Part shown: positions 1,535 to 15,696 of the stretch, one piece after another
How the letters are laid out: every line of letters begins with the position of its first letter
Position numbering within the stretch: the stretch's first letter is position 1
Source: Nitrospiria bacterium
GTDB taxonomy: Bacteria; Nitrospirota; Nitrospiria; SBBL01; JAADHI01
Assembly: GCA_046756725.1 (NCBI GenBank)
Contig: JBHHWW010000032.1
Span: 1 to 15,696, forward strand
Direction of reading: 5' to 3'
Length of the DNA: 15,696 bases
The notes under the pieces: generated by a model
The model's database searches: none
What the model saw: the letters and a program-made list of their open reading frames with translations, nothing else
What the model was told of the DNA's origin: nothing
Translations under genes and position numbers: made by a program

Positions 1535-1556
1535 GACTGATTTCCCTCTCACACAG

Positions 1557-2693
1557 TTAAAAAGTCTGAGGTACAAGGTATGAGATTAGTGTCATGATGA
1601 TGATGTAAGCCAGGGCCAAGACGCCCAAAACAGTGACGAGTCTACCTGATTGACCGAGCCTGGATTTGCGATCCCAAAATGGCACCAACACCAACAGAAC
1701 ACCACTAACTCCAAAGCCAGCAATGCCTAATACTTCGCCATCGAGAAACAACAGTTTGGCCGGAATGAACTTCAAAGTTTGAAACATGAAAACAAAATAC
1801 CATTCCGGTTGGATGCCGGCGGGCGCAGGCGCGAACGGATCCGCCTTAACGCCAAGCTCCCAGGGGAAGAGCGCAGCGATGGCCACCAGAACCCCCAAAG
1901 CCAAAACCCAACCGAGGACATCGCGCAACAAAAAATTCGGAAAGAAAGGCATCGATCGTATCGGCTGACCACTCCTTTCTAAGCTTAACGGTACGCTCAT
2001 CCCCTGCTTTTGCACGACCCAAAGGTGGAATGCCAGCAATAGCGTGGCAATCATCGGCAGGACGGCCACATGAAAGCCAAAGAAACGGGTCAGGGTTGCG
2101 CCAGTGACATCTTCACCGCCGCGCAGGAACTTCAATAAGAATCCGCCGACAAGCGGCACAAGCGCTACGACTTCAGTGCCGACTTTTGTAGCAAAAAAGG
2201 CGAGCTCGTTCCACGGCAGCAAATATCCTGAGAATCCAAACCCTAATGAAAGAAAAAGCAGAAAGACACCACTGACCCACGTCAGCTCTCGCGGTTTACG
2301 ATACGCCTTCATGAAATAGACGCTGAACAAATGAATGAACGCCGCGGCGACCATTAAATTCGCCGACCAACTGTGAATCGAACGAATCAGCCAACCGAAA
2401 CGCACCTCCGTCATGATAAATTGAACACTTTCGAACGCGGCCTCCGCCGTGGGCCGATAGTAAAGCAAAAGCAAAATTCCCGTTATCACCTGAATGACAA
2501 AAAAGAACAACGTGATGCCGCCGAAATAATACCAGATGCTGTGGCGATGCATGGGAACACGTTTCTTTGCAAGGAAGGATTCCAGGGCACTGATGTCATA
2601 GCGTTCTTTGACCCAAAGTAATATTCGCTGTCCGATCGTTCCGTTCGACTGCGGGGATGGCTTCAATTGAGTTTCCTTAGGCATTTGAGCCAT
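1557..2693 (-). CDS. Cytochrome b of a Rieske/cytochrome b (bc/b6f-type) complex, with the cytochrome b6 and subunit IV portions fused in one polypeptide.
   Basis: Two His pairs spaced by 13 residues on transmembrane helices ([17 protein letters not shown] and [17 protein letters not shown]). A conserved [11 protein letters not shown]-type N-terminal segment. A PEWY motif (IQPEWYF) in the C-terminal subunit-IV-like half. Multiple hydrophobic helices. The 378-aa length fits a fused b6/SUIV. Confidence 0.88.
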
Positions 2694-2771
2694 TGTTTTT
2701 CTTCATCTCCTAATAGTGGCGACCTGCTAACTGTTTGAAACTTGCTTGCGGATTAGCTACCTCCGAATTCA

Positions 2772-3269
2772 TCAAGCTGTTTTCGTAACGACTATATCCT
2801 CCCCTCTAATCTCGACATTGTAGGCTTCTAAAGGACTGGGCTGCGGACCGGAGATATTCTTTCCGGTCAAATCAAAATGGCCGTTGTGGCAGGCACACCA
2901 GATATGCTTGAAATCCGACCGATACTGAACGGTACACTGCAAGTGCGTACAGATGGCCGTGAAGGCTACATACTCATCATTCTGTGTGCGAACCAGGATA
3001 CCCGGCTTGCTGCCGAATCGAAAGATCTTACCGGCATTTAACGCAAGCTCACCAACCCTTGCCGCGACCACGCTGCTCTGGACGGCCTCCTGAACTTTCG
3101 GAGGGATGATGAAATTGACGAGTGGGACAAATATCGCACCCAATGTTGTCAAAAGACCGCCGCCGAGCAAGAAGTTTACAAATCTTCGGCGGGGCATCTC
3201 ATGGCTTTGAGAACTTTCTTCTGCAGTTTCAGATAACCGATTTGGAGATTTTGACTTCATGGCAACCAT
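2772..3269 (-). CDS. Rieske [2Fe-2S] iron-sulfur protein with a TAT signal and membrane anchor.
   Basis: Twin-arginine motif PRRRFVNFLLGGG followed by a hydrophobic helix. Rieske box I CTHLQC and box II CACHNGH. An AGGAG Shine-Dalgarno 6 nt upstream of the ATG. It lies immediately upstream of cytochrome b. Confidence 0.88.
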   Translation of the reverse strand: MVAMKSKSPNRLSETAEESSQSHEMPRRRFVNFLLGGGLLTTLGAIFVPLVNFIIPPKVQEAVQSSVVAARVGELALNAGKIFRFGSKPGILVRTQNDEYVAFTAICTHLQCTVQYRSDFKHIWCACHNGHFDLTGKNISGPQPSPLEAYNVEIRGEDIVVTKTA

Positions 3270-3280
3270 TCCTGACTCCT

Positions 3281-4189
3281 CTACTCCTTCCTTGCATCAG
3301 GTTGCATCGTCTTATTTAGTGCAGCCAGTCCGGAAAAAGTACCCATGTTGAGAGCATCGGAGACGGTACTGGGAACCACCATCAAAGAGCCCTTCTCCTT
3401 CATCCCTTCATAAAGTATGTTCATTGCTCGAAGATGGAAGGCCGTGGGATTCTTTTCATAGCGTTTGGAAGCTCTTTCAAACTTCTCAGCGATCTCGACT
3501 TCAGCATCACCCAGGATGACCCGAGCCTGTTTTTCTCTTTCAGCCTGAGCCTTCCGAGACATAGCATCCTCGAGGTCGGCAGGGATCACCACATCGCGGA
3601 TTTCCACCGACCTCACCGAGATTCCCCAATCATGCGTACGTTCATCGATGATGATTCGGAGTTGCTCATCGATCGCCTCTCGACCCGTCAGCATATCTGC
3701 AAGCATGGTCTTTCCGATAACATCTCGCAACGCAGTCTGGGCCGCCCAGGCGACTGCGTCGTTATAGTTTTCCACGTTGAGTGCTGCTTTTTGGGCATCA
3801 TGTACTTGCCAAAACAGAACAGCATCGACATTGACAGGAACCGTGTCGTGAGTTAGTGTCTTTTCAGCCGCAAATCCGGTAGCTCTCACCCGTTGGTCGA
3901 GCCACATGACTACCCGATCAATCATTGGAATGACCCAGAAAAGGCCAGGGCCTTTCAAACCAATAAACCGCCCCAGACGCAGGATTACTGCCTTTTCCCA
4001 TTGATTTGCCAGCCTTGCTGTGAGGGAAATGACGAAACCTAGCGGAAGGCCGATGAGAAAGACAAGAGTCCGCGCTACTGCATATTCTGGGCGTGGCGCT
4101 AATACCAGACCCAAAACTATGACCATTGTCCACACGGCAGCCAAAATGGCGAAGCTAATGATATTATACCCAAAGAATTTTGGTCGCAT
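3281..4189 (-). CDS. SPFH/band-7 (stomatin/prohibitin-like) membrane protein.
   Basis: Two N-terminal hydrophobic segments followed by the stomatin-type core EKAVILRLGRFIGLKGPGLFWVIPMIDRV. A C-terminal Ala/Glu/Lys-rich coiled region (KAQAEREKQARVILGDAEVEIAEKFERA). A strong AGGAGG Shine-Dalgarno upstream. Confidence 0.85.
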   Translation of the reverse strand: MRPKFFGYNIISFAILAAVWTMVIVLGLVLAPRPEYAVARTLVFLIGLPLGFVISLTARLANQWEKAVILRLGRFIGLKGPGLFWVIPMIDRVVMWLDQRVRATGFAAEKTLTHDTVPVNVDAVLFWQVHDAQKAALNVENYNDAVAWAAQTALRDVIGKTMLADMLTGREAIDEQLRIIIDERTHDWGISVRSVEIRDVVIPADLEDAMSRKAQAEREKQARVILGDAEVEIAEKFERASKRYEKNPTAFHLRAMNILYEGMKEKGSLMVVPSTVSDALNMGTFSGLAALNKTMQPDARKE

Positions 4190-4311
4190 GTTCAGACCTC
4201 CTTTTTCGATTTGAACACTCCCGGATTTAGTTTGTTACAATTGACTCAAAACAAGAACGACCTCGGGTAGACTCATCCCGCAAGCCCCGTTAAATGGTCT
4301 GTCTCGCCGCC

Positions 4312-5535
4312 CTAGTTTTCCGTTTTCCCCGACCTCGAGAAAGAGCGCAGGTAGGCATATAAGTTTGCCATATCCCTGCCGCTCAATTCCTGCCATTTCA
4401 TTTTTCTTTCTTGGAGTATCTTGTGCATTGCCGGAGCGTGATTCCACATGGCCGTAATCATTGCAAGAGGCGAGTCCAGTGCGCCGAGTGCTGCCAGGTC
4501 TGCTGAGATTCTTGCACCTTTTCCCTGCAACGAATGGCAAGTCAGGCATGCTTTCTCATTAAGGATTTTGTATCCCTCCTTGGTATCTCCTGGGGGGTCT
4601 TTGAGCTTGAGCCCATAAATATAGGCAATGACATCCGCTATTTCTCCTTTCTCGAAGACGGGAAAAGCAATACTCTCTCTTTTCATGACCTCCCACATTT
4701 GGGGACCGTGATTCCACATCTTACCAGCGATTTGTGTAACAGAGTAATTAAGGTCGAGCTCAGTAAAATCAGGACCCAAATTGTTGCCATCAGCGCTAGC
4801 TGCATGGCACTTCATGCACCCCTTTTTCTCCGCAATTCTGTAACCAACGACAGGATCGCCGAATGCAAAATCCCCGGGGTGGTCTCTTCGAGGAGACATG
4901 AAAGATCTTATGCCCGCAGCAAGATTGACGATCTCATCATCCTCGAATTCTGGTCGTTTGACTTTATGTTTCTCAAAGATTTCAAGCAGATTTGGTCCGT
5001 GATTCCACAAGGCTTCAGCAAGTTTTATGGGTGCCATATAGTCCTCTATTGCACTAATGTCAGGGCCGACGTCACCACCGACGCCACCAAATTTATGACA
5101 GGTTACACACCCCTTGGATTTCAAAAGCTTCCTGCCTGAAAATTCGATGCCGGGCTCTCCAAGATATCTGAAATAAGCAAGATAGGAAATAAGCTGCGAC
5201 ATTTCCTCACTGTTGAGTTCCGTGAACTGATAACCCGTCTGTCGCATTTTTTGGGACATACTTGGGAAATGATTCCACATCAGCGCTGCTAATTCGAGAT
5301 AGGTGCCATAAAATTTCTGCTTGCCCAGGTCAGGGCCGCCATTGCCATTTTCTCCATACACGGCATGGCATTGGTTGCATCCCTTTTGCCTGAATACTTC
5401 CCGCCCCTTCCATGGCGATTCCAACGATGTGCTTATCTGGGCGCTGACCGAGGAGAACATGAGCACCAGCAACACAAGTGTGAGGCACGGGCCGAAATGG
5501 CTTGATTCCGTTCGGCGTTTGTTTATTGCTAACAT
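4312..5535 (-). CDS. Tetraheme c-type cytochrome made of four tandem class-I (monoheme) cytochrome c domains, with a Sec signal peptide. The ORF track gives 4312..5580, but the ATG at 5535 is the preferred start because it begins the signal peptide and follows a GAGGGA Shine-Dalgarno.
   Basis: Four CxxCH motifs (CNQCH, CVTCH, CMKCH, CLTCH). Each is followed by a GPD(L/I/F) motif and then M/LWNH(F/G/A)P, a candidate Met sixth ligand, and a C-terminal YL-type helix, giving four repeats of roughly 100 aa. Signal peptide MLAINKRRTESSHFGPCLTLVLLVLMFSSVSA/Q. Confidence 0.85.
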   Translation of the reverse strand: MLAINKRRTESSHFGPCLTLVLLVLMFSSVSAQISTSLESPWKGREVFRQKGCNQCHAVYGENGNGGPDLGKQKFYGTYLELAALMWNHFPSMSQKMRQTGYQFTELNSEEMSQLISYLAYFRYLGEPGIEFSGRKLLKSKGCVTCHKFGGVGGDVGPDISAIEDYMAPIKLAEALWNHGPNLLEIFEKHKVKRPEFEDDEIVNLAAGIRSFMSPRRDHPGDFAFGDPVVGYRIAEKKGCMKCHAASADGNNLGPDFTELDLNYSVTQIAGKMWNHGPQMWEVMKRESIAFPVFEKGEIADVIAYIYGLKLKDPPGDTKEGYKILNEKACLTCHSLQGKGARISADLAALGALDSPLAMITAMWNHAPAMHKILQERKMKWQELSGRDMANLYAYLRSFSRSGKTEN

Positions 5536-5542
5536 AGTTCCC

Positions 5543-6763
5543 TCACTTGCTTTGATGAATGCTCCCGGTTTCAGGGGCATGACATTGCTGAACTCCTTCG
5601 TAACAGGATTTCATCAATCTTGCTCTCTTACATTGGCTACAGAGTGATAGCGTCTCGAAGAGGGCATCCCCACATACTTCTTTCGAAAAAGATGCCAGAA
5701 CCCGCTGCTGTATTTTGTCTGGAGAATAGACCACACCGCAACCGGAACATCTAGTTGGCTGAGTTGCTGCTACTTCAATCCACTTCTGCTCTGTGTCTGC
5801 TTCTTGGTGGTCGTATCCAGGAAACAACTTGATAGCTTCTTGTGGACACAGAGCTAAACATTGCTCGCATCCGCTGCACAGCTCCGATTTGAAAAGAAGT
5901 CGAATGCTTTGCTGATCGCTGGTAATCCGAAACGCTTCTGTAGGACAGCCACTGACACATGCTCCACAGAGAATGCAATCGTAAGAGTTGACCTCTAAAA
6001 TACAACCTGCCTCTTTCCCCATGATTTTCCCACGAAGTTGGTGAACCAATTCCTTTTCATGCCTGGAACTTGCCGGCGAATTCAGGACTTTTGCTTCCTG
6101 CTTATGAATCTCGTCTCTGAGGTTCTCCAGGTCACCTGAGACGAAGTCTCGCAATACCGCGGCTAATGAGCGATAAAAAGGTGAATCGGTGCTCGACTCA
6201 ATTTTATTACTGAATTCGGAAGCCCATACACCCAGATGTTTCACTAGAAAGTCATACTGTTTGAGTAGATATTGCAGCGCTATTTCGGCTCTACAATTGT
6301 GCCTGGCTTCATACTCTCTTTCACACAAAAGGGCCATGTATTCCAGTTCAGCTACAATATGATCAGGCAAATCATGAAAATCATGCTTCATAAAGAAGCC
6401 TTCCAAACCATATTCTCTACAGATACTGAATATCTGTTCATCCAAGACCTGATGATTTGGACTTCTATAAATGGATTCGTATGGATGAGCTTTTGGCGAA
6501 TAGGGCCCGACAAAAAGACGGTTGTATTCGATTTCCAAATTCTGCCAAAAGGTGTACTCATTATTTTGGGCGTTCGTTTCAATGAATTGTAATAATTCTG
6601 CGCTCGGCTTTCGATACGCTGAAAAAAGATAATCTCTTGTCTGTTGGGAAAGTATTTCCATCAGTGAGTGTTCATTGTTCGAGGAAAACAACGCCCGGTG
6701 TGGCCGCCCAAATGCCACGGCCAAACCTGCATATATTTCCATCCTGATCTTAGCTCCAACCAT
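5543..6763 (-). CDS. TorD/DmsD-family redox-enzyme maturation chaperone fused to a C-terminal 2x[4Fe-4S] ferredoxin domain with an additional Cys-rich tail.
   Basis: The N-terminal half carries the TorD signatures EYNRLFVGP, HPYESIY and LPDHIVAELEYMALL. The C-terminal half has CILCGACVSGCP and CSGCEQCLALCP (the CxxCxxCxxxCP pattern of 4Fe-4S sites) plus CSGCG...CSQCKRAR...C..C.H. A GGAAGGA Shine-Dalgarno sits 7 nt upstream, and the start abuts the upstream gene's stop as TGAATG. Confidence 0.8.
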   Translation of the reverse strand: MVGAKIRMEIYAGLAVAFGRPHRALFSSNNEHSLMEILSQQTRDYLFSAYRKPSAELLQFIETNAQNNEYTFWQNLEIEYNRLFVGPYSPKAHPYESIYRSPNHQVLDEQIFSICREYGLEGFFMKHDFHDLPDHIVAELEYMALLCEREYEARHNCRAEIALQYLLKQYDFLVKHLGVWASEFSNKIESSTDSPFYRSLAAVLRDFVSGDLENLRDEIHKQEAKVLNSPASSRHEKELVHQLRGKIMGKEAGCILEVNSYDCILCGACVSGCPTEAFRITSDQQSIRLLFKSELCSGCEQCLALCPQEAIKLFPGYDHQEADTEQKWIEVAATQPTRCSGCGVVYSPDKIQQRVLASFSKEVCGDALFETLSLCSQCKRARLMKSCYEGVQQCHAPETGSIHQSK

Positions 6764-8449
6764 TCAAAGTTCCTTCCACTGTACAATGCGAGTCTGGGCT
6801 GCAGGAGCAAACATGTGCCACGGACTTGAATTTGTTCTAGGTTGTATCAGGCAAATTTGCAAAGGAATCATACACAATAGGAGAATTCCCGTGAGCCATT
6901 TGACAGGGGCATAATCGTACATCCAGGTGGAAAAACCCCAGACCATCAATCCAATTCCCAACATAAACGTTCCAATCACCATTATTCTCTTTGCTGTCGG
7001 CGGCATTTCGATTCGGGGGAGAAAAACGTGTTTTTCGCTGTTCTTGATTTCATAGTCTTCAGGCAGCTCGATGACAGGCAGCAACTTGATCAGAATCGTA
7101 AAGAACAGGATACCAAAAAGCCAGGTCCCCAATACAACGATAAGTTCGCTTATGGTCGGAACATACGGAGCAACTTTGTAGGGTAGTAATGGATGATAAA
7201 ATGATGGGACAACGATGAGAAAACGAATCATCCACAGGGCCATGTTTATCAGAATTGATGCAAATACGGTCAGGCTGATGCTGCAGATTTTGGGATTACA
7301 GCCTTGAATAAACAGCAAAAAGAACGGAAAAAGTAATCCGCCTAGTAAAGTAGGCCAGGTCAATATGGCAAATCGTCCCCAGAGATAATCAGTCCAGACT
7401 TTATGGTCGGCTTCAGGGGCAGAGTATAATCCCGTCAGTATTTCACTAAATAGAAAATACATATAGAGCCAGGTTACAAAGCCCAGGAAAATACCCAATC
7501 CTTTGAACATGCGCGCCGGAAGAAATTCATCCCAGTCATAAATTTTTCGTAACACCGCTATGATGATAATCATTGCTGAAAATCCAGAGACAATTGCTCC
7601 CAAAACGAAATAAGGCGCCATAATAGGATTAAACCAGCCCGGTCTACCCGGCTGCAGTCCGAATACAAAGCCGTAAACCGAATGCACCGAAACCATGATG
7701 GGTAAAATGATCACCGCACACCACCAGATTGTGCGGTTATGGGTTTCCTGCACCTGTCTTGTGTCTCTGTAACCAATGGCCAAAATTCGATAAAGCCAGC
7801 GTTTTTTGGGTATTAACATAGAAGAAATGCAAAGATCTCTCCGCATGGCTAAATACAGGTAAACCGAGCTGCCTATGACATACCATGTAATAACCGTCAT
7901 GGACCAGACAAACGGGGCATGGATGCGACCGTGCAGGACAACATTGACCAAGAATCTATCTGGCCTGCCAACATCCAACATAATATTTAAGACCGCTGCG
8001 GTCATAGAAACCAGCGTAACCAACTCAGCAATCCTCGCCAGAGGTTTGTATCTCTCTAAATTCATGATCCGGACACTGGCCGAAATGGCAATGCCAACAT
8101 GGCTGATTCCGATGAGGTGAATAATATTGGCGACAATAACCCCCCACATGGCTCCCTTGGTGCTAAGACCCTGTACACCATGACCGACTAAAGTCTGATT
8201 AGTAATCACATACATCCATCCCGAAAGCAGCAGTAGTAATCCCCCTATAAAGAAATAGAATCCTCTGCTGGTGCTCAACAATGGCCGGAATGCACTTTCA
8301 AGATTCATTACTGCTTTAGAATCCAAATGGTCTCTGTTCCAGGTAAAATCTGGAGCTTTGAAAGTAGAATTTACTTTTGCTTCATGCAACCCGCTTTGCC
8401 GCTCTCCTGCAAAAGGTGATGCTTGTTCTGTCTTGGTCCGCAACATCAT
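6764..8449 (-). CDS. NrfD/PsrC-family integral membrane quinone-interacting subunit of a complex iron-sulfur molybdoenzyme. It is a long form with roughly 10 or more predicted helices.
   Basis: About 60 N-terminal cytoplasmic residues, then FYFFIGGLLLLLSGW and WGVIVANIIHLIGISHVGIAISA, typical of the NrfD family. Hydrophobic helices continue through a C-terminal extension (…TWMYDYAPVKWLTGILLLCMIPLQICLI). The start overlaps the upstream ferredoxin-subunit stop as ATGA. Confidence 0.8.
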   Translation of the reverse strand: MMLRTKTEQASPFAGERQSGLHEAKVNSTFKAPDFTWNRDHLDSKAVMNLESAFRPLLSTSRGFYFFIGGLLLLLSGWMYVITNQTLVGHGVQGLSTKGAMWGVIVANIIHLIGISHVGIAISASVRIMNLERYKPLARIAELVTLVSMTAAVLNIMLDVGRPDRFLVNVVLHGRIHAPFVWSMTVITWYVIGSSVYLYLAMRRDLCISSMLIPKKRWLYRILAIGYRDTRQVQETHNRTIWWCAVIILPIMVSVHSVYGFVFGLQPGRPGWFNPIMAPYFVLGAIVSGFSAMIIIIAVLRKIYDWDEFLPARMFKGLGIFLGFVTWLYMYFLFSEILTGLYSAPEADHKVWTDYLWGRFAILTWPTLLGGLLFPFFLLFIQGCNPKICSISLTVFASILINMALWMIRFLIVVPSFYHPLLPYKVAPYVPTISELIVVLGTWLFGILFFTILIKLLPVIELPEDYEIKNSEKHVFLPRIEMPPTAKRIMVIGTFMLGIGLMVWGFSTWMYDYAPVKWLTGILLLCMIPLQICLIQPRTNSSPWHMFAPAAQTRIVQWKEL

Positions 8450-9138
8450 TAGAATCCTTCTTTCAAATAAATGACTTTGGGGTGTGTTCCCATCTCTTCC
8501 AACAAATGAAAAGCCCGCGAACTTCTGGCCAACATTGACACGGTACTTTCCGGATCATCCAGATCGCCAAAAAATCGTGCGCCCCCGGGACAAGTCTGAC
8601 AGCAGGCTGGCAGTTTTACGACCTCTTCGTCGCGGATCTTTCGTTTTTCCTTCTGTGCCCGCTCTTTCACTTTGTGGATGCGCTGTATGCAGAAATTGCA
8701 TTTTTCTACCACCCCTTTACATCGAACGGACACCTCCGGATTTAGCTGCTTATCCATTGGTAAAGGCCATTCTGACTGATACCAGTTGAAAGCCCGAGCT
8801 GAATAAGGACAGGCACACATACATAGGCGACATCCAATACAACGGTTGTAAATCTGCCCAACTATTCCTTCTTGATTCTTGTATGTGGCATGAACAGGAC
8901 ACACTTTGATACAGGCAGGATTTTCGCAATGCATGCATGGGCGCGGAATAAAATGAGCCTTCGCATAAGGATATTCTCCCTCTATGCTCGAGATGACTTC
9001 TGTCCAAAAAATCGCCCGCCCCTTCTTAGCCTCCACAGGACCGACAAATGGGATGTTGTTCTCTGCCACGCATGAAATCGTGCAAGCCTGACAGGCTGTA
9101 CATTTATCCAGATCAATGACCATACCCCATTTTGCCAT
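8449..9138 (-). CDS. Four-cluster [4Fe-4S] ferredoxin electron-transfer subunit of the PsrB/DmsB/ArrB type.
   Basis: N-terminus MAKWGMVIDLDKCTACQACTISC. Four Cys groups: CTACQACTISC, CMHCENPACIKVCP, CIGCRLCMCACP and CNFC...CCQTCPGG. An AGGAG Shine-Dalgarno upstream. 229 aa. Confidence 0.88.
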   Translation of the reverse strand: MAKWGMVIDLDKCTACQACTISCVAENNIPFVGPVEAKKGRAIFWTEVISSIEGEYPYAKAHFIPRPCMHCENPACIKVCPVHATYKNQEGIVGQIYNRCIGCRLCMCACPYSARAFNWYQSEWPLPMDKQLNPEVSVRCKGVVEKCNFCIQRIHKVKERAQKEKRKIRDEEVVKLPACCQTCPGGARFFGDLDDPESTVSMLARSSRAFHLLEEMGTHPKVIYLKEGF

Positions 9139-9177
9139 GGACCATCTCCTTTATGAATGCTCCTCCATCCAGAGTCG

Positions 9178-11607
9178 CTAAGCTTTATATACTTTGACTT
9201 TGGTTGAATAAAAGGAACAAAGTCCTCCCAGGTAGTCAAACTCAGGAGTAAGAATTTCATTTGGGTTCACACCAAGTTCCTGAGCCCAGCGTCCATATTT
9301 CGTATGCCCATATTCGAAGGGCATACTGACAATATCTGGTTTTGCGCCAGCAAAGAGTCTGGCTTCGACTTTGATCTTACCAATTTTCGATTCTACCCAA
9401 ACTGAATCGCCATCATGAATCCCCAGTTCTGCGGCACTTTGGGGATTTATTTCTAACCACGGTCCCCATTTCATTTTGACCTGTAGACCGAACGACTCTT
9501 GCAGCCAGGGTAGGTTGGCTCCTCTTCCTTCAGCATGGGTCATCGTCTTGTAGGTACTTAAATAGAATGGAAAATCACCATGGTTGCCAGTATATCTTAC
9601 TGGCTCATAATGTGGCATAAAAACCCGGTCGCCACGAGCTTCGAGTTTCAATCCACGCAATATTTCTTCCCACTCCTGCTCTATCTCAGAACCGTGTTCG
9701 TCTGCTTGTTTTGCTGCAAACTCCTCTAATTTCTGTTGCATAAGTTGAGAATAAAATTCAAACTTTTTTGATGGGGTAGCAAATACCTCTTCCCATTTAC
9801 CGTATTCATAAGGAGGATTCCACCATCCGCCATTCTTCAGAAGTTCATCCCAGAAATCTTCAGAATCCCGGGCCATGATTGACCCTTTTCGAGCACGAAG
9901 AACACCTTGTACTCGATATTCGATCATCTCCTGATAATCTTCCCAGGGGAAGCTCGCCGCTACGCTTCCTCCAATGGCTTTGGCTATTTTGATCATTACA
10001 TCCGCTGTGTTCATGGTATCATAAAGTGGCTTGACTACGGGCTGTCTGATGCCGAAAAGTGGAAATCCGACACTGGGATCAATTTCGTCATCCTGCCATC
10101 TTTCGAGATAGGTATGATCGGGCAGGATGAGATCAGCCTGACTTGTGGCCTCATCCATAAAAGGCGAAAAACTGACGATGAACGGAATATGAGAAAAAGC
10201 CCTGTAGTAACGTTCAACTCGAGGAGCTGAAAACAGCGGGTTTGTATAATAAAGAAAAAGCGTGTCTATGGGATAAGGTTTCGCCTGAGTAATATTGTCT
10301 GGCAAGGCGGAATAAATATTTGCAGTAAAAGGGAATTTGGCTGTTCCTGCGCTGTCAACACGAGGCATGGACACGCCCTTTTTGCTGATGTCATCCTGGA
10401 CGACATCAGGCCAGGGTTGGAATGGAGGTCTTCTCTGTTTCAGAACGCCCCCTGGCGCATCTATGCTTCCCACGAGCGCATTTAGAGAATGAATGGCCAT
10501 ACAATTAAACACGCCATTTGACTGCATACTGACACCCCGCACACCAGCGGCAAAAGCTGGCTTCGTTTCGGCAAATTCCCGAGCAATTTTCATTATGGTT
10601 TTGGCTGGCACACCCGTTATTTCAGTCACGATTTCTGGCGGATAGTCTTCCCGGACCATGTTCTTGAAACCTAAATGGATATTGCCCGTCTCATCCTGCC
10701 AATCTTCAAAACCAAAAGTGCGCTCCTCAATGAAGCTGCGGTCATATAACCCTTCAGAAACAATGACATGAGCCATTCCTAAGGCCAGAGCGCTATCTGT
10801 CCCATGATTTATCGAAATCCAATCATCCGCCTTCGAGGCGGTTACTGAAAAACGTGGATCGACACAGACAATTTTTGTCCGAAAACCAGGTCGCCCTCTT
10901 CTCATGTGACCATACATGCGCAAGAGCATGGTTGTAGGGCGCCAGGCTTCTAGCAGGGAAGCGCCAAAACAGACCAGATAGTTGACGTTTTCCCAGTCGT
11001 ATGCCGCATAATTCGCCCAACCTTGTGTAAAGTAGTGGGCTAGTTTTGAGCCATCGGATAGAATGGAACTATGACCTAAATCATTAGGTGAGCCGTAGGC
11101 GGTCAAAAACCTGTTCATGAGGTCGTGCATGCTTCCGCGATAGCGTCCACCCATAATTGCCAGGGTATGCGAGCGCTCTTCATTTCTTATTCTTTCCAAT
11201 CTTTCAGCCACGAGACTTATGGCCTCACCCCAGGAGATGGCTACCCATCTGTCAGAACCTCGCTCACCTACCTGTCTCATTGGGCCCTTGATGCGATCGG
11301 GATCGTAAAGGACCTGAAGTCCGGCCTGGCCCTTGGGGCACAAGCGCCCTTGATTGGTTGGATAGGAAGGATTCCCCTCAATTTTGACGGCATTGCCATT
11401 CACAACTTTCACTTGAATCCCGCATCCGCCAGGACATTGCAGGCAGATACTTTTTAGCCATTTTTCCTCATCAACTTCTATCCTGCCTTCTCCAGCTCTC
11501 CCCAATGCCTGCGTAATTCGAGTGGGTCGACAGCCGGTTCCTAAAGCAACAGTGCTGCCGAAAATACCGGTCATCTTCAAGAATTTTCGTCTCGTAATTC
11601 TTGACAT
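9178..11607 (-). CDS. TAT-exported molybdopterin (Mo-bisPGD) oxidoreductase catalytic subunit of the PsrA/PhsA/ArrA-like clade. Substrate is not determinable from the sequence alone.
   Basis: Twin-arginine signal SRITRRKFLKMTGIFGSTVALGTGC. N-terminal [4Fe-4S] motif CLQCPGGC...RLCPKG (C-x2-C-x3-C-x~27-C). 809 aa. A perfect AGGAGGAG Shine-Dalgarno upstream. Followed by FeS, NrfD and TorD-like genes. Confidence 0.85.
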   Translation of the reverse strand: MSRITRRKFLKMTGIFGSTVALGTGCRPTRITQALGRAGEGRIEVDEEKWLKSICLQCPGGCGIQVKVVNGNAVKIEGNPSYPTNQGRLCPKGQAGLQVLYDPDRIKGPMRQVGERGSDRWVAISWGEAISLVAERLERIRNEERSHTLAIMGGRYRGSMHDLMNRFLTAYGSPNDLGHSSILSDGSKLAHYFTQGWANYAAYDWENVNYLVCFGASLLEAWRPTTMLLRMYGHMRRGRPGFRTKIVCVDPRFSVTASKADDWISINHGTDSALALGMAHVIVSEGLYDRSFIEERTFGFEDWQDETGNIHLGFKNMVREDYPPEIVTEITGVPAKTIMKIAREFAETKPAFAAGVRGVSMQSNGVFNCMAIHSLNALVGSIDAPGGVLKQRRPPFQPWPDVVQDDISKKGVSMPRVDSAGTAKFPFTANIYSALPDNITQAKPYPIDTLFLYYTNPLFSAPRVERYYRAFSHIPFIVSFSPFMDEATSQADLILPDHTYLERWQDDEIDPSVGFPLFGIRQPVVKPLYDTMNTADVMIKIAKAIGGSVAASFPWEDYQEMIEYRVQGVLRARKGSIMARDSEDFWDELLKNGGWWNPPYEYGKWEEVFATPSKKFEFYSQLMQQKLEEFAAKQADEHGSEIEQEWEEILRGLKLEARGDRVFMPHYEPVRYTGNHGDFPFYLSTYKTMTHAEGRGANLPWLQESFGLQVKMKWGPWLEINPQSAAELGIHDGDSVWVESKIGKIKVEARLFAGAKPDIVSMPFEYGHTKYGRWAQELGVNPNEILTPEFDYLGGLCSFYSTKVKVYKA

Positions 11608-11632
11608 TATCTCCTCCTGATAACGGTCATTC

Positions 11633-12307
11633 CTAATAATGACAGACTAAGCAATCATTGTCGGCATCCATTTTCTCATGACAATCCATACAGGTCTCCA
11701 TTTTCATTTTCATTTTGAGCCCGAACGACATGGAAGCCATTTCCACCCTGACGTGACAGTCGCGACACTCCACCTGGCTATTCGTCACATGTCGTTCATG
11801 CGAAAAGTGTGTATCCCCGGTTAAATAGTTGTTGACCCTTACCCAATTAATCATCTGCCCGTCATTGATATAGACCATGAGCTTACTTTCTTCCGGATGA
11901 TCTGAAATGGTCTCCTGATGGCAAATTATGCATACATCTATGTTGGGGATTGAAGCCCGATGGCCTAGAATTGATTTTCTGTGGCAACCAACACACGGTC
12001 TACTCTCAGGTCTTTCTCGAAGATTTGTCTCCAGGAATATCTGATGGCAGCCCGAGCAATCTTTGATTCTGGGGGTATCCTCTACGGCTTCATCAAAACT
12101 TCCATGACATTCCATACACTCACCTTTTTCCAGTTCCTCTGGAATTTCCCCAAGGAGTTCCTCATGCATGGCAAAATTGGCTTTCTTATGGTCGCCTTTT
12201 GCAAAATATTGAAAATGGATTTTGTGATTGAAATCTATTGGCTGTTCAGATTCGTAAGTACATCCGAGGAGAAAAAGCAAAATCACTTTCATTATGATAG
12301 TCTTCAT
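11633..12307 (-). CDS. Heptaheme cytochrome c3-like lipoprotein. The ORF track gives 11633..12325 using a TTG start, but the ATG at 12307 or GTG at 12310 is preferred because it is preceded by GAGGA and begins a lipoprotein signal.
   Basis: Seven CxxCH motifs (CMECH, CSGCH, CVGCH, CIICH, CRDCH, CMDCH, CLVCH). A lipobox (MKTIIMKVILLFLLGC). His-rich spacers (FNHKIHF, THFSHERHV) of the kind seen in c3-family multiheme proteins. It is the first gene after the 200-nt intergenic region. Confidence 0.8.
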   Translation of the reverse strand: MKTIIMKVILLFLLGCTYESEQPIDFNHKIHFQYFAKGDHKKANFAMHEELLGEIPEELEKGECMECHGSFDEAVEDTPRIKDCSGCHQIFLETNLRERPESRPCVGCHRKSILGHRASIPNIDVCIICHQETISDHPEESKLMVYINDGQMINWVRVNNYLTGDTHFSHERHVTNSQVECRDCHVRVEMASMSFGLKMKMKMETCMDCHEKMDADNDCLVCHY

Positions 12308-12377
12308 CACATTGTTTTTCCTCAAAATCGGTTTTAGAATAATGAAAATGCCAGATTGCGCCAGTTTAGCTGAAAAT

Positions 12378-12393
12378 TACAACTTTCATGCCA
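12378..12393 (-). promoter_or_regulatory. Candidate sigma-54 (-24/-12) promoter for the cytochrome/molybdoenzyme operon.
   Basis: The minus strand reads TGGCAT-GAAAG-TTGTA against the consensus TGGCAC-N5-TTGCA. Spacing is correct, but the conserved -12 GC is GT. It lies about 55-70 nt upstream of the first gene start and directly downstream of a sigma-54 activator gene. Confidence 0.3.
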
Positions 12394-12465
12394 TGTCAAT
12401 CGCAATGAAATTAACCAGACGAAAACACAGAAGTTAGGAGGGTGTGGGATAAACAGACGACACGC

Positions 12466-12489
12466 TGACGGTTTGACGATTAGCCGTCA
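12466..12489. promoter_or_regulatory. Inverted repeat TGACGG-N12-CCGTCA with additional TGACG half-site copies. It is a candidate enhancer (UAS) for the NtrC-type regulator.
   Basis: A perfect 6-bp inverted repeat about 85 bp upstream of the sigma-54 candidate. Direct TGACG/GACGA copies occur at 12456..12460 and 12475..12479. Confidence 0.3.
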
Positions 12490-12526
12490 TCTCAAAAAGG
12501 ATAGCTTTTGATAAGCACTTGAGTAA

Positions 12527-13957
12527 TCAGACATTTAGAGGATGATCATATGGTGACGTTGAATCGTCATTTGTTGACGGATTATCGAGGGATCTCAAAC
12601 GGGCAAGTTTGTCGCGCAGAGTTGTACGGGGAATGTTCAGTAGTTTGGCGGCTTTTACCTGATTCCCCTCTGCTTCTTTCAAAGCCCACAAGATTAATTT
12701 AGCTTCCACTTCCGAAACGGCCTCGGAGAGATTAATCTGTTTGTTTCCACCAGGATCAAGAGAAACCATGCCATCCTGCGCGTGGACATCTCGAATGTAG
12801 TCGGGCAGATCGTCAACGGTGATGCGATCTGATTTGGAAAGTGTCACTGCATGTTCCACGATATTTTCCAGCTCCCTGACGTTACCCGGCCAATCGTGCC
12901 TGAGTAGTACTTTTTGTACTTCATGAGTAAAATAATGTAAGGATTTATTTCTCTCTTTGCAGAGTTTCTTCAGAAAATGCCGGGCCAGAAGAGATATGTC
13001 CTCGCGGCGCGCCCTTAATGGTGGCAACTCAATCTTAACCACGTTGAGGCGATAATAAAGGTCTTCTCGGAATTTACCTTCCGAAACCATCTGTTGAAGG
13101 TCTTTTTTTGTCGCGCAGATCACGCGCACGTTCACTTTTAAGGGCTGCTCACCTCCCACCCGTTCGAAAGCTCTCTCTTCGATCACCCTGAGGAGCTTGA
13201 CTTGAAGCTCGACCGGAATATCATCCACGTCATCCAGGAAGATTGTACCTTTATCCGCTAACTCAAACCGTCCGCGTTTGCGGCGCAACGCTCCGGTAAA
13301 GGCACCCTTTTCATGACCGAAAAGCTCACTTTCGAGGATTTCACGATTCAAAATAGCGCAGCTTAGTGTTATGAAAGGACCATATTTTCTGTGGCTATTG
13401 TAATGAAGTGCATTGGCCAGAAGCTCCTTTCCGGTTCCCGTTTCTCCTTGTATGAGAATGCTCGTATCACTGTCTGCCACTGCATCAGCCTTCTCATATA
13501 TGGTTCGCATGGCCCTGGAGTGACCGATGAGATTCTGATAGCAATACTGAGACTGGATTTTCTTCTGCAAAGTCGCAATTTGTACTTTACCCTTGCGATA
13601 CTCCATCAGGCGATTCAGTTTGATGGATAACGCATCATAGGGGAAAGGTTTGGTAATATAATCGTAGGCCCCCTCTTTCATCGCTTCTACAGCATTCTCG
13701 ATCGTGCCGTAGGCCGTCATCATAATCACTTCTATCTCGGGTGAAAGTCTCTTGATTTCTCTCAAGAAAGTCAACCCATCCATAGATGGCATCCGCAGAT
13801 CCGTAACCACCACATCAAAGGAACTCTTCCTGAGGTAGTCAAGACCTACAAACGCATTCTCTCCAATCTCGACACTGTATCCCTCGTCTTCCAGTTGTGT
13901 CTTCAAGGTCACGCGTTTCAGCTTTTCGTCATCAATTACAAGAATTTTGCCTTTCAT
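12527..13957 (-). CDS. Sigma-54-dependent response regulator (NtrC family enhancer-binding protein).
   Basis: Receiver domain (VVVTDLRMPSMDG). AAA+ sigma-54 activation domain with Walker A GETGTGKE, the GAFTGA motif (ESELFGHEKGAFTGA) and Walker B IFLDDVDD. C-terminal Fis-type HTH (AAKLLNIPRTTLRDKLARL). The start overlaps the kinase stop as ATGA. Confidence 0.93.
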   Translation of the reverse strand: MKGKILVIDDEKLKRVTLKTQLEDEGYSVEIGENAFVGLDYLRKSSFDVVVTDLRMPSMDGLTFLREIKRLSPEIEVIMMTAYGTIENAVEAMKEGAYDYITKPFPYDALSIKLNRLMEYRKGKVQIATLQKKIQSQYCYQNLIGHSRAMRTIYEKADAVADSDTSILIQGETGTGKELLANALHYNSHRKYGPFITLSCAILNREILESELFGHEKGAFTGALRRKRGRFELADKGTIFLDDVDDIPVELQVKLLRVIEERAFERVGGEQPLKVNVRVICATKKDLQQMVSEGKFREDLYYRLNVVKIELPPLRARREDISLLARHFLKKLCKERNKSLHYFTHEVQKVLLRHDWPGNVRELENIVEHAVTLSKSDRITVDDLPDYIRDVHAQDGMVSLDPGGNKQINLSEAVSEVEAKLILWALKEAEGNQVKAAKLLNIPRTTLRDKLARLRSLDNPSTNDDSTSPYDHPLNV

Positions 13958-15696
13958 TGTTCATCTCTCGTCGGTAACAAAACGCTAACAGTGGTTCCCT
14001 GGCTTGACTTGCTGGTAATGGTGATTTTCCCACCATGTTCTTCGATAATTTTTCGACTAATGGAAAGGCCAAGTCCTGTGCCCTTTTCAGTATCTTTGGT
14101 GGTAAAGAAGGGACTGAATATTCTTTCCAGATTTTCCTCCGAAATGCCGCATCCGTTATCTGATATCCTCACCTGCGCAGAGGGATTCGAGTCCTGGTTT
14201 GGTACTTCGGTCTCAATCCCAATGCGCCCACCAGATTTACCATCCAAAGCATCAGAAGCATTAATGAGGATATTTATGAAAACCTGCGAGAGATTGTAGG
14301 GGTCGCCAAATACCTTTGGTAACGACCTATCTTGATGGGACACCAACTCAATGCCTTGATCCTCAATCTTGTGCTTAATCAAAAGCAGTGATCTCTCTAC
14401 CACCTCGTTCAAATCGATGATTTCCATCTTTAGCTTGTGGTGCTTGGAGAAGATTAGAAGCCTTCTCACGATAAAAGCAATTCTTTCTATCCCTTCCGAA
14501 ATCAATTCGAACATAGTGTTCGCTTTCGTTATGTTGCCAGGATTCTTCTGGATGATGTCCAAACAATTTTGTATTCCATCCAAAGGGTTATTGATTTCGT
14601 GAGCTACACTTGCGGCCAAACGCCCGATGGAGGTCAACTTTTCGGTGTGAATCAGTTGTTCTTCAATGAACTTGCGCTCTGTGATATCTCGCCTCAACTC
14701 GATTACTTGAAAGATCTCTCCATTTTCGTCCCGAAGAGGAGAGCAATAAATCTCCAGATATTTCTCTCTTCCACTTCTGTCCAGGAAAGTGTGTAATGTC
14801 TTTTGCAAACTGCCTTCCTCAAAAGTTGTTTTGGCAGGGCACCTTCTCAGCAAGTCCTGATCACAGGAGATTTCTGAATCTTGCACGATCGTGAAGCAAC
14901 CTCTTCCAATGATGTTTTCTCTGGAGCCACCGCACTTATTCAAGTAGGCATCATTGGCAGTGACAATCTTATAGTCTCGGTCTACGACCACAATCTCATC
15001 GTCAATCCCATTGATGACATGCTCCAGATAATCTTTGTGCCTTTCCACTTCGTTTAAAGTGTCCTTTAAATTGGCAGTCATTTGGTTAAAGCTCCTGGCC
15101 AGATTGCTAATCTCATCATTTTCTTTGAATTCGATTACTTCATCTAAATTGCCTTCACTAATACGAAGCGTCGTGTCTGTAAATTTTTTGATTCTCTGAA
15201 GAATGAGCTTATTTACCAACAGGCCCAACACCGCACTGGTGACCAGAACCATGACGAGAGCCATCCCAAATATTTTGTTACTGTTAGAAGCCAATTGCCT
15301 TTGCGTATCCGCCATGGACAAATCCATCACCAAAATACCATTTATTTTCTCATCAGCATCATGACAGTCATAACACCGGGGCCGGTTATAAATGAGGCTC
15401 ATATTTCTGAAAATTTCTGTACGTTTTTCATCTTTGGCAATCGTCGTGTTTTTTCGCCTTACCGGAGAGTACTGGTGGCAAACCAGACAAATTGGATCAA
15501 CATTGTTTTTGTAGACTTTTCCCACCATTTTAGGATCAGAGGATATCTTCAACTCGCCCCTTTTGTTCAAGATCATGATTCGTTCCACACCCGATTGCTC
15601 AGAGAGTCTCTTTACCTCTTCATTCAATAAATGGGGCTCTTTTTGGAGCATAGCGGTTTCCAAAGTATTTACCACCAATCTACTGAGATTTGTAGT
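13954..15696 (-). CDS. Sensor histidine kinase, N-terminally truncated by the window edge. Its periplasmic sensor domain carries two heme-c binding motifs.
   Basis: The reading frame stays open to the window end, so the TTG at 15678 is not a real start. CLVCH (15475..15489) and CYDCH (15361..15375) lie before the transmembrane helix IFGMALVMVLVTSAVLGLLV. Then come a HAMP-like linker, a Cys-containing PAS region, an H-box SVAHEINNPLDGI, an N-box NILINASDAL, and G-boxes DNGCGI and GTGLGLSI. Confidence 0.88.
   Translation of the reverse strand, partial: TTNLSRLVVNTLETAMLQKEPHLLNEEVKRLSEQSGVERIMILNKRGELKISSDPKMVGKVYKNNVDPICLVCHQYSPVRRKNTTIAKDEKRTEIFRNMSLIYNRPRCYDCHDADEKINGILVMDLSMADTQRQLASNSNKIFGMALVMVLVTSAVLGLLVNKLILQRIKKFTDTTLRISEGNLDEVIEFKENDEISNLARSFNQMTANLKDTLNEVERHKDYLEHVINGIDDEIVVVDRDYKIVTANDAYLNKCGGSRENIIGRGCFTIVQDSEISCDQDLLRRCPAKTTFEEGSLQKTLHTFLDRSGREKYLEIYCSPLRDENGEIFQVIELRRDITERKFIEEQLIHTEKLTSIGRLAASVAHEINNPLDGIQNCLDIIQKNPGNITKANTMFELISEGIERIAFIVRRLLIFSKHHKLKMEIIDLNEVVERSLLLIKHKIEDQGIELVSHQDRSLPKVFGDPYNLSQVFINILINASDALDGKSGGRIGIETEVPNQDSNPSAQVRISDNGCGISEENLERIFSPFFTTKDTEKGTGLGLSISRKIIEEHGGKITITSKSSQGTTVSVLLPTRDEQ

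Follow-up and report, generated by a model that had tools for sequence, protein, structure and literature searches.

The 15,696-bp contig JBHHWW010000032.1 of a Nitrospiria bacterium, referred to here as the window, encodes at positions 9178-11607 the large subunit of a putative membrane complex. This protein is best described as a barely degenerated, ArrA-like member of the MopB (molybdopterin oxidoreductase) family that lacks only the molybdenum (Mo) ligand. Together with the products of adjacent genes it would constitute a cytochrome c/quinone electron-transfer module of the alternative complex III (ACIII) or Qrc type, in which catalysis has only begun to be lost; we assign this reading a probability of about one half. 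The early stage is suggested by what the protein and its locus have retained, namely the signal for twin-arginine translocation (Tat), the site of the iron-sulfur (FeS) cluster FeS0, nearly all residues of the substrate pocket and of the cofactor signatures, and a TorD-ferredoxin protein. An initial annotation had proposed a catalytic molybdoenzyme. The MopB architecture, FeS0 and the partner subunits were borne out, but catalysis was not, as alignment to solved homologues places a leucine (Leu183) at the position of the Mo-ligand cysteine of ArrA (Cys193). Judged from its sequence, the window protein falls outside ArrA/ArxA, PsrA/PhsA, QrcB and ActB by every criterion tested.

Large subunit and the molybdenum-ligand position

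The large-subunit gene is an uninterrupted 809-aa open reading frame (ORF) starting at an ATG and, as initially annotated, free of in-frame TGA codons up to its stop. The export signal and the cluster motif described at that stage were found as well: the translation begins with MSRITRRKFLK, Pfam TAT_signal (PF10518) is present in several homologues, and the CxxCxxxC...C motif of FeS0 is complete (Table 1); the cluster is probably bound. The other domains are Molybdopterin (120.8 bits) and Molydop_binding (59.2 bits). The length, said to lie between those of PsrA/PhsA and ArrA/ArxA, does so (809 aa versus 759 for the PhsA model and 848 for the ArrA model). The proposed gene order, A-B-C-D with TorD as D, named the right partners (the large subunit followed by FeS, NrfD-type and TorD-like proteins), but the actual order is cytochrome c-A-B-C-D: a heptahaem cytochrome gene between the regulator and the large subunit had been overlooked, as had the fusion of TorD to a ferredoxin. 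An ArrA/PsrA-type, Tat-exported MopB protein with FeS0 and with FeS, NrfD and TorD partners is therefore a supported description.

Among solved structures, the closest match was ArrA of Shewanella sp. ANA-3 (6cz7_A; 366.7 bits, residues 49-806), which is 32% identical to the window protein over 731 columns, followed by PsrA (2vpw, 217.8 bits) and ACIII ActB (59.5 bits). An AlphaFold model of the subunit, with a predicted local distance difference test score (pLDDT) of 88.2, gave TM-scores of 0.86 to 6cz7 and 0.75 to PsrA. This predicted structure supports an ArrA-like fold and cannot reveal cofactors.

In ArrA, Cys193 is the Mo ligand, and the oxyanion pocket is formed by R165, Y166, H189, S190, K198 and Y210 (the numbering of the 6cz7 chain is offset by 40 from these residue numbers, and the offset reproduces all six of them, as well as C193, exactly). 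In the HMMER alignment to 6cz7_A, Leu183 pairs with Cys193 (GHSSILSDGSK in the window protein, SHSSVCAEAHK in ArrA) without a gap between HSS and K, and neither Cys nor Sec, Ser or Asp stands at the ligand position of the window protein. All pocket equivalents are kept (R155, Y156, H179, S180, K188 and Y200). In the alignment to PsrA (2vpw_A), the ligand Cys lies opposite a gap in the query, and loop 180-184 is the sole internal segment of the model with a pLDDT below 50. A sequencing error was ruled out, because the Leu183 codon is CTA in the window and TTG in each of its two closest relatives (L001 and L009), which come from other metagenome-assembled genomes (MAGs).

Proposed loss of the ligand and gain of a cytochrome in the family

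A protein search with the large subunit yielded thousands of relatives; no cultured source was found among the source-named entries in the best 120 matches or among 80 related genomic loci. The MAGs carrying family members are labelled as Nitrospirota, Nitrospinota, Methylomirabilota/NC10, Chloroflexota, Thermodesulfobacteriota and others. For comparison, 88 loci with flanks were collected, their ORFs were called and homologues of the window's twelve proteins were located by phmmer.

The first group of loci has the ligand Cys within a loop of the form HSSIC[ASE]DG, in operons composed of A, B, NrfD and TorD genes plus a large ferredoxin, without a cytochrome and mostly with LuxR-type regulators. 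TorD (about 230 aa) and the ferredoxin (about 520-560 aa) are encoded there by separate neighbouring genes, with an FlpD-like match in L006. Cys-bearing sisters of the window protein (e.g. in L002, L006 and L013) are 50-60% identical to it and have the same B, NrfD, TorD and ferredoxin partners, whereas they differ in the presence of the Cys, in the absence of an upstream cytochrome and in their mostly LuxR-type rather than sigma-54 regulators. The loop of a Cys-bearing sister (HSSICSDGAKLAHY) differs from that of the window protein (HSSILSDGSKLAHY) only by Cys to Leu and Ala to Ser. In the second, non-HSSIC group, the ligand column is occupied by Leu (window, L001 and L009), Ser (L004 and a Chloroflexota group), Gly, Arg or a gap, and in three members by a Cys whose surrounding loop differs from HSSIC[ASE]DG.

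The gene immediately upstream of the large-subunit gene encodes a cytochrome with three or more haems in none of the 27 HSSIC-type loci and in 42 of the 55 others (82 loci in total; Fisher p 3.5e-12, not corrected for phylogeny), and several of the non-HSSIC exceptions are cut by contig ends. In a neighbour-joining tree rooted on ArrA, the Cys-type loci form a basal grade and the non-Cys, cytochrome-linked loci a derived clade, with the window clade near the base of the latter, beside L004. The same polarity, from Cys to non-Cys, is obtained by parsimony, because the Cys is present, and a cytochrome of this kind absent, in ArrA, PsrA and other relatives alike. The initial annotation had allowed for two findings that would speak against its proposal. 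One was placement in a clade lacking Mo ligands, of the QrcB/ActB kind, and the window protein does belong to such a clade, a derived one in which the ligand column is unconserved and a multihaem cytochrome has been added, although it is not QrcB or ActB proper. The other was loss of residues that bind molybdopterin guanine dinucleotide; as far as can be read from the sequence, these are not lost.

A recurring gene layout was observed in the cytochrome-linked group: kinase, sigma-54 activator, (receiver), cytochrome, A, B, NrfD, TorD-like protein, SPFH protein and cytochrome c. It is present in L001 (Leu), L004 (Ser), L007 and L023 (both Gly) and, in part, in L073, L086 and L068 (Cys) and in L076 and L077 (Gly). 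As the layout is the same whether the ligand column holds Leu, Ser, Gly, Arg or Cys, the shared function cannot depend on a particular Mo ligand. It is chiefly for this reason that we consider the cytochrome-linked complexes to have become independent of catalysis at Mo.

The ligand-less state is widespread: about 125 of the 140 cluster representatives closest to the window protein (50%-identity clusters, 31-49% identical to it) are without the Mo-ligand Cys, and the four FeS0 Cys are almost always retained, whether or not a relative has the ligand. Metagenomes thus hold a very large unnamed radiation of ligand-less, FeS0-bearing MopB proteins. One representative, P0258, is an A-B fusion with FeS0 retained. 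Another candidate fusion, of cytochrome and large subunit in P0205, was dropped, since its Tat motif lies in the middle of the protein and the fusion is probably a gene-calling artefact.

A more derived branch, from MAGs of Syntrophaceae and Thermodesulfobacteriota, has a 794-aa large subunit with the loop GNPxRGSEG and the order cytochrome-A-B-NrfD, without TorD. In L005 (positions 2046-12513, Syntrophaceae bacterium UBA2188) the module directly follows a complete cox operon (SCO1, COX1, COX3, COX4, COX2-cytochrome c and haem O synthase), and one cluster motif of its FeS subunit is reduced to three Cys (C103V), which would fit a [3Fe-4S] cluster, as in ACIII/Qrc. This locus resembles an ACIII with unfused subunits, although the lineage is generally considered anaerobic.

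Two Cys-type loci have further features. In L006 (positions 4281-14872, uncultured bacterium, CAZHST010000007.1) the genes preceding the family member encode a LuxR-type regulator, a Cache-GAF histidine kinase and a periplasmic binding protein of the PhnD kind, a sensing arrangement that is AioX/ArxX-like. Two further MopB genes flank the family member, and one of them encodes an ActB-like fusion with a cytochrome before it. L002 encodes, at positions 963-4562, a 1199-aa subunit of carbon monoxide dehydrogenase/acetyl-CoA synthase (CdhC/ACS_CODH_B) with matches to an intein and a LAGLIDADG endonuclease inside the ACS domain.

Degeneracy of the large subunit and alternative readings

Several observations weigh against a module that has abandoned catalysis. 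The window protein keeps 132 of the 137 positions that are at least 90% conserved in Cys-bearing members (the five misses are R72N, R112Q, C183L, E262D and P268H), a count that is dominated by close relatives and was superseded by a decay-prone subset. This subset consists of 17 of the 137 positions, each kept in less than 40% of the 125 ligand-less representatives; since it includes the equivalents of the ArrA active-site residues R165, H189, C193 and Y210, it is suggested to capture residues that depend on the site. The window protein retains 16 of the 17, as does L001, followed by L009, L004 and ArrA itself (15 each), L005 (14), L007 (13), L072 (8) and L079 (7). The signature positions are nearly unchanged among the three sequences of the window clade, which are about 20% divergent overall. 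This retention means that either the Cys was lost recently on this scale, or the pocket and the cofactor site are still under selection. Furthermore, the distance of the protein to ArrA is within the range of Cys-type members, with no acceleration of rate, and its Pfam domain scores equal theirs. Such scores had been tried as a test of cofactor loss and were discarded as non-discriminating, since window, Cys-type and cox-linked members score alike.

Other points of this kind concern the comparison with known systems. FeS0 and a TorD-family chaperone are retained in the window, and QrcB (PMC13059093) and ActB-B1 (PMC5928083) hold no prosthetic groups. The neighbour-joining tree is without bootstrap and has one outgroup. 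In the Cys-type locus L006, the B and NrfD subunits are as ACIII-like as those of the window, and the ACIII-type BC module is thus a trait of the whole family that does not set the cytochrome-linked group apart; the window's group is distinguished by its cytochrome and by the loss of the Cys. Finally, arsenite oxidase works with a Mo-bis(pyranopterin guanine dinucleotide) cofactor (Mo-bisPGD) that lacks a protein ligand, and multihaem cytochromes accompany true Mo enzymes too, e.g. in TorCAD and PcrABCD.

In the strongest alternative, the large subunit is a catalytic Mo- or W-bisPGD enzyme without a protein ligand, similar to AioA (which has Ala at the Mo-ligand position) but with an ArrA-type pocket, and the heptahaem cytochrome is its redox partner. 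Its reaction might, for instance, be the oxidation of arsenite or a similar oxyanion, with the electrons fed to the quinone pool or to cytochromes. Such an enzyme would be consistent with the presence of all six pocket equivalents, with the near invariance of the decay-prone positions in the window clade, with a protein that has kept its Tat signal and FeS0 in a locus that has kept a TorD-ferredoxin gene for maturation, and with the maintenance of Leu183 through synonymous codons; the sisters in L004 (Ser) and in L073, L086 and L068 (Cys) even carry residues able to ligate Mo. However, other relatives of the same layout have a non-ligating Gly, Arg or gap in this column, which implies that the residue is not constrained in the way expected of a single enzyme family. 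The side chain of Leu is larger than that of the Ala in AioA, and the protein is not Aio-like in any other respect (41.2 bits on the NCBIfam arsenite_ox_L model, with a cut-off of 359). In addition, the kinase of the locus is of a haem type, in place of an oxyanion-binding sensor protein, and the strict link between loss of the Cys and gain of the cytochrome argues for a changed function. We regard such an enzyme as possible, with odds clearly below even.

A related and somewhat more doubtful proposal is that Mo- or W-bisPGD and FeS0 are both bound, with no protein ligand to the Mo or W, the protein being either a new Aio-like oxyanion oxidase on an ArrA scaffold, wired to the heptahaem cytochrome, or one in which pterin and FeS0 serve only as an electron relay from haem chain to FeS chain or back. 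In both cases it would be a living intermediate on the way from an arsenate-reductase-like enzyme toward ACIII/Qrc. Also under the electron-transfer reading favoured here, the pterin cofactor is perhaps kept as a structural or relay element.

It is very unlikely that Mo is instead ligated by Ser184 or Asp185 after a shift of the loop by one or two residues, on the model of dimethyl sulfoxide and nitrate reductases. In the loop HSSILSDGSK, Ser and Asp do directly follow Leu, the low pLDDT of this segment leaves its register uncertain, and the sister in L004 has Ser exactly at the ligand column. Nevertheless, Ser and Asp also follow the Cys in the Cys-bearing members of L002, L018 and L020 (HSSICSDG), and members with and without the Cys share the Asp, so that neither residue can have arisen to compensate for the lost Cys; the alignment to ArrA, moreover, needs no gap. 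Least probable of all is a bona fide ArrA, ArxA, PsrA/PhsA or QrcB that is missed by thresholds too strict for a divergent phylum: ArrA is indeed the best match by sequence and by fold, and the relative P0107 was labelled ArxA by its submitter, but the curated cut-offs for ArrA, PhsA and QrcB are all missed widely, by ten other family members likewise, the protein has no ligand Cys, its B and C partners are more ACIII- than Arr/Psr-like, and FeS0 is present, unlike in QrcB.

Partner subunits and relation to known complexes

Three of the four subunits of the complex match ACIII subunits best. For the heptahaem cytochrome, the best solved matches are ActA of ACIII (6f0k_A, E 3.8e-12, and 6btm_A). 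The FeS subunit is closest to the B2 domain of ActB (6f0k_B, residues 797-1022; 200.4 bits), ahead of ArrB (127.6 bits) and PsrB (114 bits). The membrane subunit matches only ActC among solved structures (6f0k_C, 8k9e_C, 6lod_C and 6btm_C; E about 1e-24) and has no match to PsrC at E < 0.01. The best NCBIfam models are QrcA for the cytochrome and QrcC for the FeS subunit.

With ACIII (ActABCDEF; 6f0k, 6btm, 6lod and 8k9e) the window complex shares the order of cytochrome, Mo-like, FeS and NrfD-type subunits (actA-B1-B2-C) and has ActA-, ActB-B2- and ActC-like components, and a branch of the family adjoins a cox operon. The differences are that the large and FeS subunits are encoded by separate genes and not by a fused ActB, to which the similarity is weak (59.5 bits), that FeS0 is kept, that all four clusters of the B subunit have four Cys, with no [3Fe-4S] cluster predicted, and that a TorD-ferredoxin is present. 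In ActB, by comparison, B1 is free of prosthetic groups and B2 has one [3Fe-4S] cluster (PMC5928083). No counterparts of ActD, ActE or ActF were found in the window, which holds no second NrfD-type gene and no ActD-like gene, and the 4-haem cytochrome has no match to ActE among solved structures. ActB was described as a sister of ArrA/ArxA (PMC10100899), and ACIII modules with split actB1 and actB2 were reported in Nitrospirales (PMC12342949).

The gene order of QrcABCD, the menaquinone reductase of sulfate reducers (multihaem cytochrome, Mo-like, FeS and NrfD-like subunits), is identical to that in the window (12325-6764, minus strand), and in both systems the large subunit is without a Mo ligand. 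QrcB is without redox cofactors (PMC13059093), whereas the window protein keeps the FeS0 Cys and Molybdop_Fe4S4. The TorD gene, the SPFH gene and the extra cytochromes of the window are not part of qrc. The Qrc equivalog cut-offs are missed by all three proteins (QrcA, 55.9 versus 180 bits; QrcB, 289.8 versus 440; QrcC, 274.7 versus 400), and ten other family members, Cys-type ones included, are below the QrcB cut-off too. We considered whether true QrcB is nested in the cytochrome-linked clade and rejected this, as all tested members, the Cys-type ones too, score 287-334 bits on the QrcB model.

The B subunit with its exclusively [4Fe-4S] clusters is nearer to the low-potential Psr/Arr type than to ACIII or Qrc, which contain a [3Fe-4S] cluster. 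PsrABC/PhsABC (2vpw) has the same three-subunit layout of a complex iron-sulfur molybdoenzyme (CISM) with a haem-free, NrfD-type anchor and is the second-best structural match; the window protein differs from it in the absence of the Cys ligand and the membrane subunit in having more helices, and the PhsA cut-off is missed (359 versus 694 bits). Common to ArrA (6cz7) and the window protein are a Tat signal, FeS0 and all six pocket residues. The differences are Leu in place of Cys193, an FeS partner whose similarity is greater to ActB-B2 than to ArrB, and the presence of both a large NrfD-type anchor and the heptahaem cytochrome, and the NCBIfam ArrA equivalog is reached at a quarter of its cut-off (404.8 versus 1600 bits). 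Apart from the Mo-ligand side chain, the following generic CISM traits are present in the window: a Tat signal, FeS0, a four-cluster subunit, a membrane anchor and a TorD/NarJ-family chaperone. The TorD-ferredoxin fusion, with the motif DLPDHI in its TorD domain and a Cys-rich tail, may have a role like that of NapF, maturing the FeS0-containing subunit before Tat export, a suggestion based on the biology of NapF.

Regulation

NtrC-type, sigma-54-dependent control, proposed in the initial annotation together with a partner kinase, found good support. Both regulatory genes are real and lie upstream of the complex. The regulator (12527-13957) is composed of a receiver, an AAA+ sigma-54 interaction domain and a Fis-type helix-turn-helix domain, and it remains below every NCBIfam equivalog cut-off. 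Orthologous activator-kinase pairs are present in L001, L004, L007, L023, L058, L076, L083 and L086.

In the gap between the regulator and cytochrome genes, a -24/-12 element of the TGGCAT-N5-TTGT type was detected (Table 1), with the counterparts TGGCATGAATATTGT in L001 and TGGCATGAATGTTGT in L009 and the consensus TGGCATGAA[AT][AG]TTGT. Sigma-54-like sites with two mismatches occur in the whole window at chance level (17 versus 15.4 expected), and the weight of this site comes only from its position and from its conservation across the three closest loci. The upstream palindrome, TGACG-N6-CGTCA, is part of one of the two conserved blocks in an alignment of the upstream regions (TGACGGCT-N3-CGTCA in the window, L001 and L009), and would be bound by the activator. 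TGGCAC-N5-TTGC-like sites occur just past the activator gene in L007, L023, L076, L083, L086 and L014, and no sigma-70-like match was found in the 200-nt gap (12326-12526) upstream of the cytochrome gene of the window. Sigma-54 control of the operon is thus a well-supported prediction, although the -12 part of the element has GT in place of the canonical GC.

The proposed analogy to the control of aio and arx loci is weak and generic only, since no AioX/ArxX-type (oxyanion-binding) sensor protein is encoded in the window and the kinase has motifs for haem c. These are CLVCH at residue 64 and CYDCH at residue 102 of the kinase (13954-15678), 38 residues apart and in its periplasmic part, before a transmembrane segment. 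A pair of this kind is found in kinases beside 13 related non-Cys loci, 37-38 residues apart in orthologues, and is absent beside Cys-type loci, which suggests a dihaem c-type sensor domain outside all Pfam families. The signal is more likely to be the redox state or a haem ligand than an oxyanion. The N-terminus of the window kinase is probably cut by the contig end; the orthologue in L001 has 614 aa and its CxxCH motifs are located 54 residues further in.

Gene organization

The long ORFs of the window are without exception on the minus strand (Table 1).

Table 1. Genes, motifs and candidate regulatory sites of the window
Feature	Position	Strand	Evidence
Sensor histidine kinase (HAMP-PAS-HisKA-HATPase)	13954..15678	-	Pfam domains
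NtrC-type sigma-54 enhancer-binding response regulator	12527..13957	-	Sigma54_activat 239.8 bits, Response_reg 105.9, HTH_8 45.2
Candidate activator-binding palindrome TGACGGCTAATCGTCA	12474..12489	-	About 90 nt upstream of the -24/-12 element
Sigma-54-type -24/-12 element TGGCATGAAAGTTGT	12379..12393	-	GG at -24; TTGT, not TTGC, at -12
Heptahaem cytochrome c with lipoprotein-like signal (LLGC), ActA/QrcA-like	11633..12325	-	7 CxxCH; N-terminal hydrophobic segment
Tat-exported MopB large subunit (809 aa), ArrA-like	9178..11607	-	FeS0 kept, Leu replaces Mo-ligand Cys
Twin-arginine motif TRRKFLK, residues 5-11	11575..11595	-	Translation
FeS0 [4Fe-4S] ligands, C55-x2-C58-x3-C62...C90; Lys92 after fourth Cys	11338..11445	-	Molybdop_Fe4S4 (PF04879), 65.9 bits
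Leu183 codon CTA, position of ArrA Cys193	11059..11061	-	HMMER alignment to 6cz7_A
Four-cluster FeS subunit (B)	8449..9138	-	16/16 Cys present, 4 x [4Fe-4S] predicted
NrfD-family membrane subunit (561 aa), ActC-like quinone-site subunit	6764..8449	-	Pfam NrfD 91.1 bits
TorD/NarJ-family chaperone domain fused to 2 x [4Fe-4S] ferredoxin	5543..6763	-	Nitrate_red_del 79.5 bits, Fer4 families
Membrane-anchored cytochrome c, four class-I haem domains	4312..5580	-	4 CxxCH, Pfam Cytochrom_C, N-terminal hydrophobic segment
SPFH/Band-7 membrane scaffold protein	3281..4189	-	Pfam Band_7 123.8 bits
Rieske protein	2772..3269	-	Part of second quinone-reactive complex
Cytochrome b	1557..2693	-	Part of second quinone-reactive complex
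9-haem cytochrome c, C-terminal anchor	227..1576	-	Part of second quinone-reactive complex

The genes of the FeS and NrfD subunits overlap by one base, the TorD-ferredoxin gene starts one base past the end of the NrfD gene, and no convincing intergenic terminator was found in the window; a single long operon from the cytochrome c gene onward is plausible. An Rfam scan of the window returned no RNA family. A crude hydropathy count gave about 11-13 hydrophobic segments for the NrfD-family subunit.

Homologues of the 4-haem cytochrome c are encoded at the equivalent position in L001, L007, L023 and L077. As called, its gene begins 38 nt inside the TorD-ferredoxin gene, near the end of the latter, and a later ATG may be the true start; its own 3' end is overlapped in another frame by a 104-aa ORF (4235-4549), which has no Pfam match and is probably spurious. 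The SPFH/Band-7 gene recurs in the cytochrome-linked operons of L001, L007, L023, L035, L055, L068, L073, L085 and L086, and none was seen in Cys-type loci. With the Rieske/cytochrome b set (227-3269) and the MopB complex, two quinone-reactive complexes share one gene string in the window. A linkage of Rieske/cytochrome b genes to a family member recurs in L040, L051, L064, L079 and L080.

Proposed mechanism and significance

The four subunits would form a periplasm-facing membrane complex composed of a heptahaem cytochrome c, the ArrA-like subunit, a subunit with four [4Fe-4S] clusters and an ActC/NrfD-type quinone subunit. The large subunit presumably descends from a Cys-ligated, ArrA-like molybdoenzyme in which Leu has replaced the Mo-ligand Cys, and from this replacement we infer that the complex most likely no longer turns over an oxyanion. 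In the periplasm, the heptahaem lipoprotein cytochrome may trade electrons with the 4-haem cytochrome, the 9-haem cytochrome and the Rieske/cytochrome b complex. The FeS clusters of the B subunit, and possibly FeS0 of the large subunit, would link it to (mena)quinone at the ActC-like subunit, which would handle quinone and protons; the flow could run toward the cytochrome, by quinol oxidation as in ACIII, or toward the quinone, by its reduction as in Qrc. Expression would be driven from the sigma-54 promoter by the adjacent NtrC-type activator, under the control of a kinase that probably has two c-type haems.

ACIII and Qrc are major respiratory complexes in which the large subunit is a dead molybdoenzyme, and to our knowledge intermediates between them and ArrA/ArxA-like enzymes have not been described. 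The family presented here offers an apparent graded series of (i) Cys-bearing members without a cytochrome, (ii) cytochrome-linked members in which the ligand alone is lost (as in the window), (iii) cox-linked members with a 3-Cys motif and no TorD and (iv) at least one A-B fusion. If confirmed, this series would give the order of events from an oxyanion reductase to a quinol/cytochrome c oxidoreductase, and it would constitute a natural test of the roles of FeS0, the pterin and the TorD chaperone once catalysis is gone. A practical consequence is that genes of this family, of which P0107 is already labelled ArxA, should not be counted as markers of arsenic, sulfur or selenium respiration in metagenomes.

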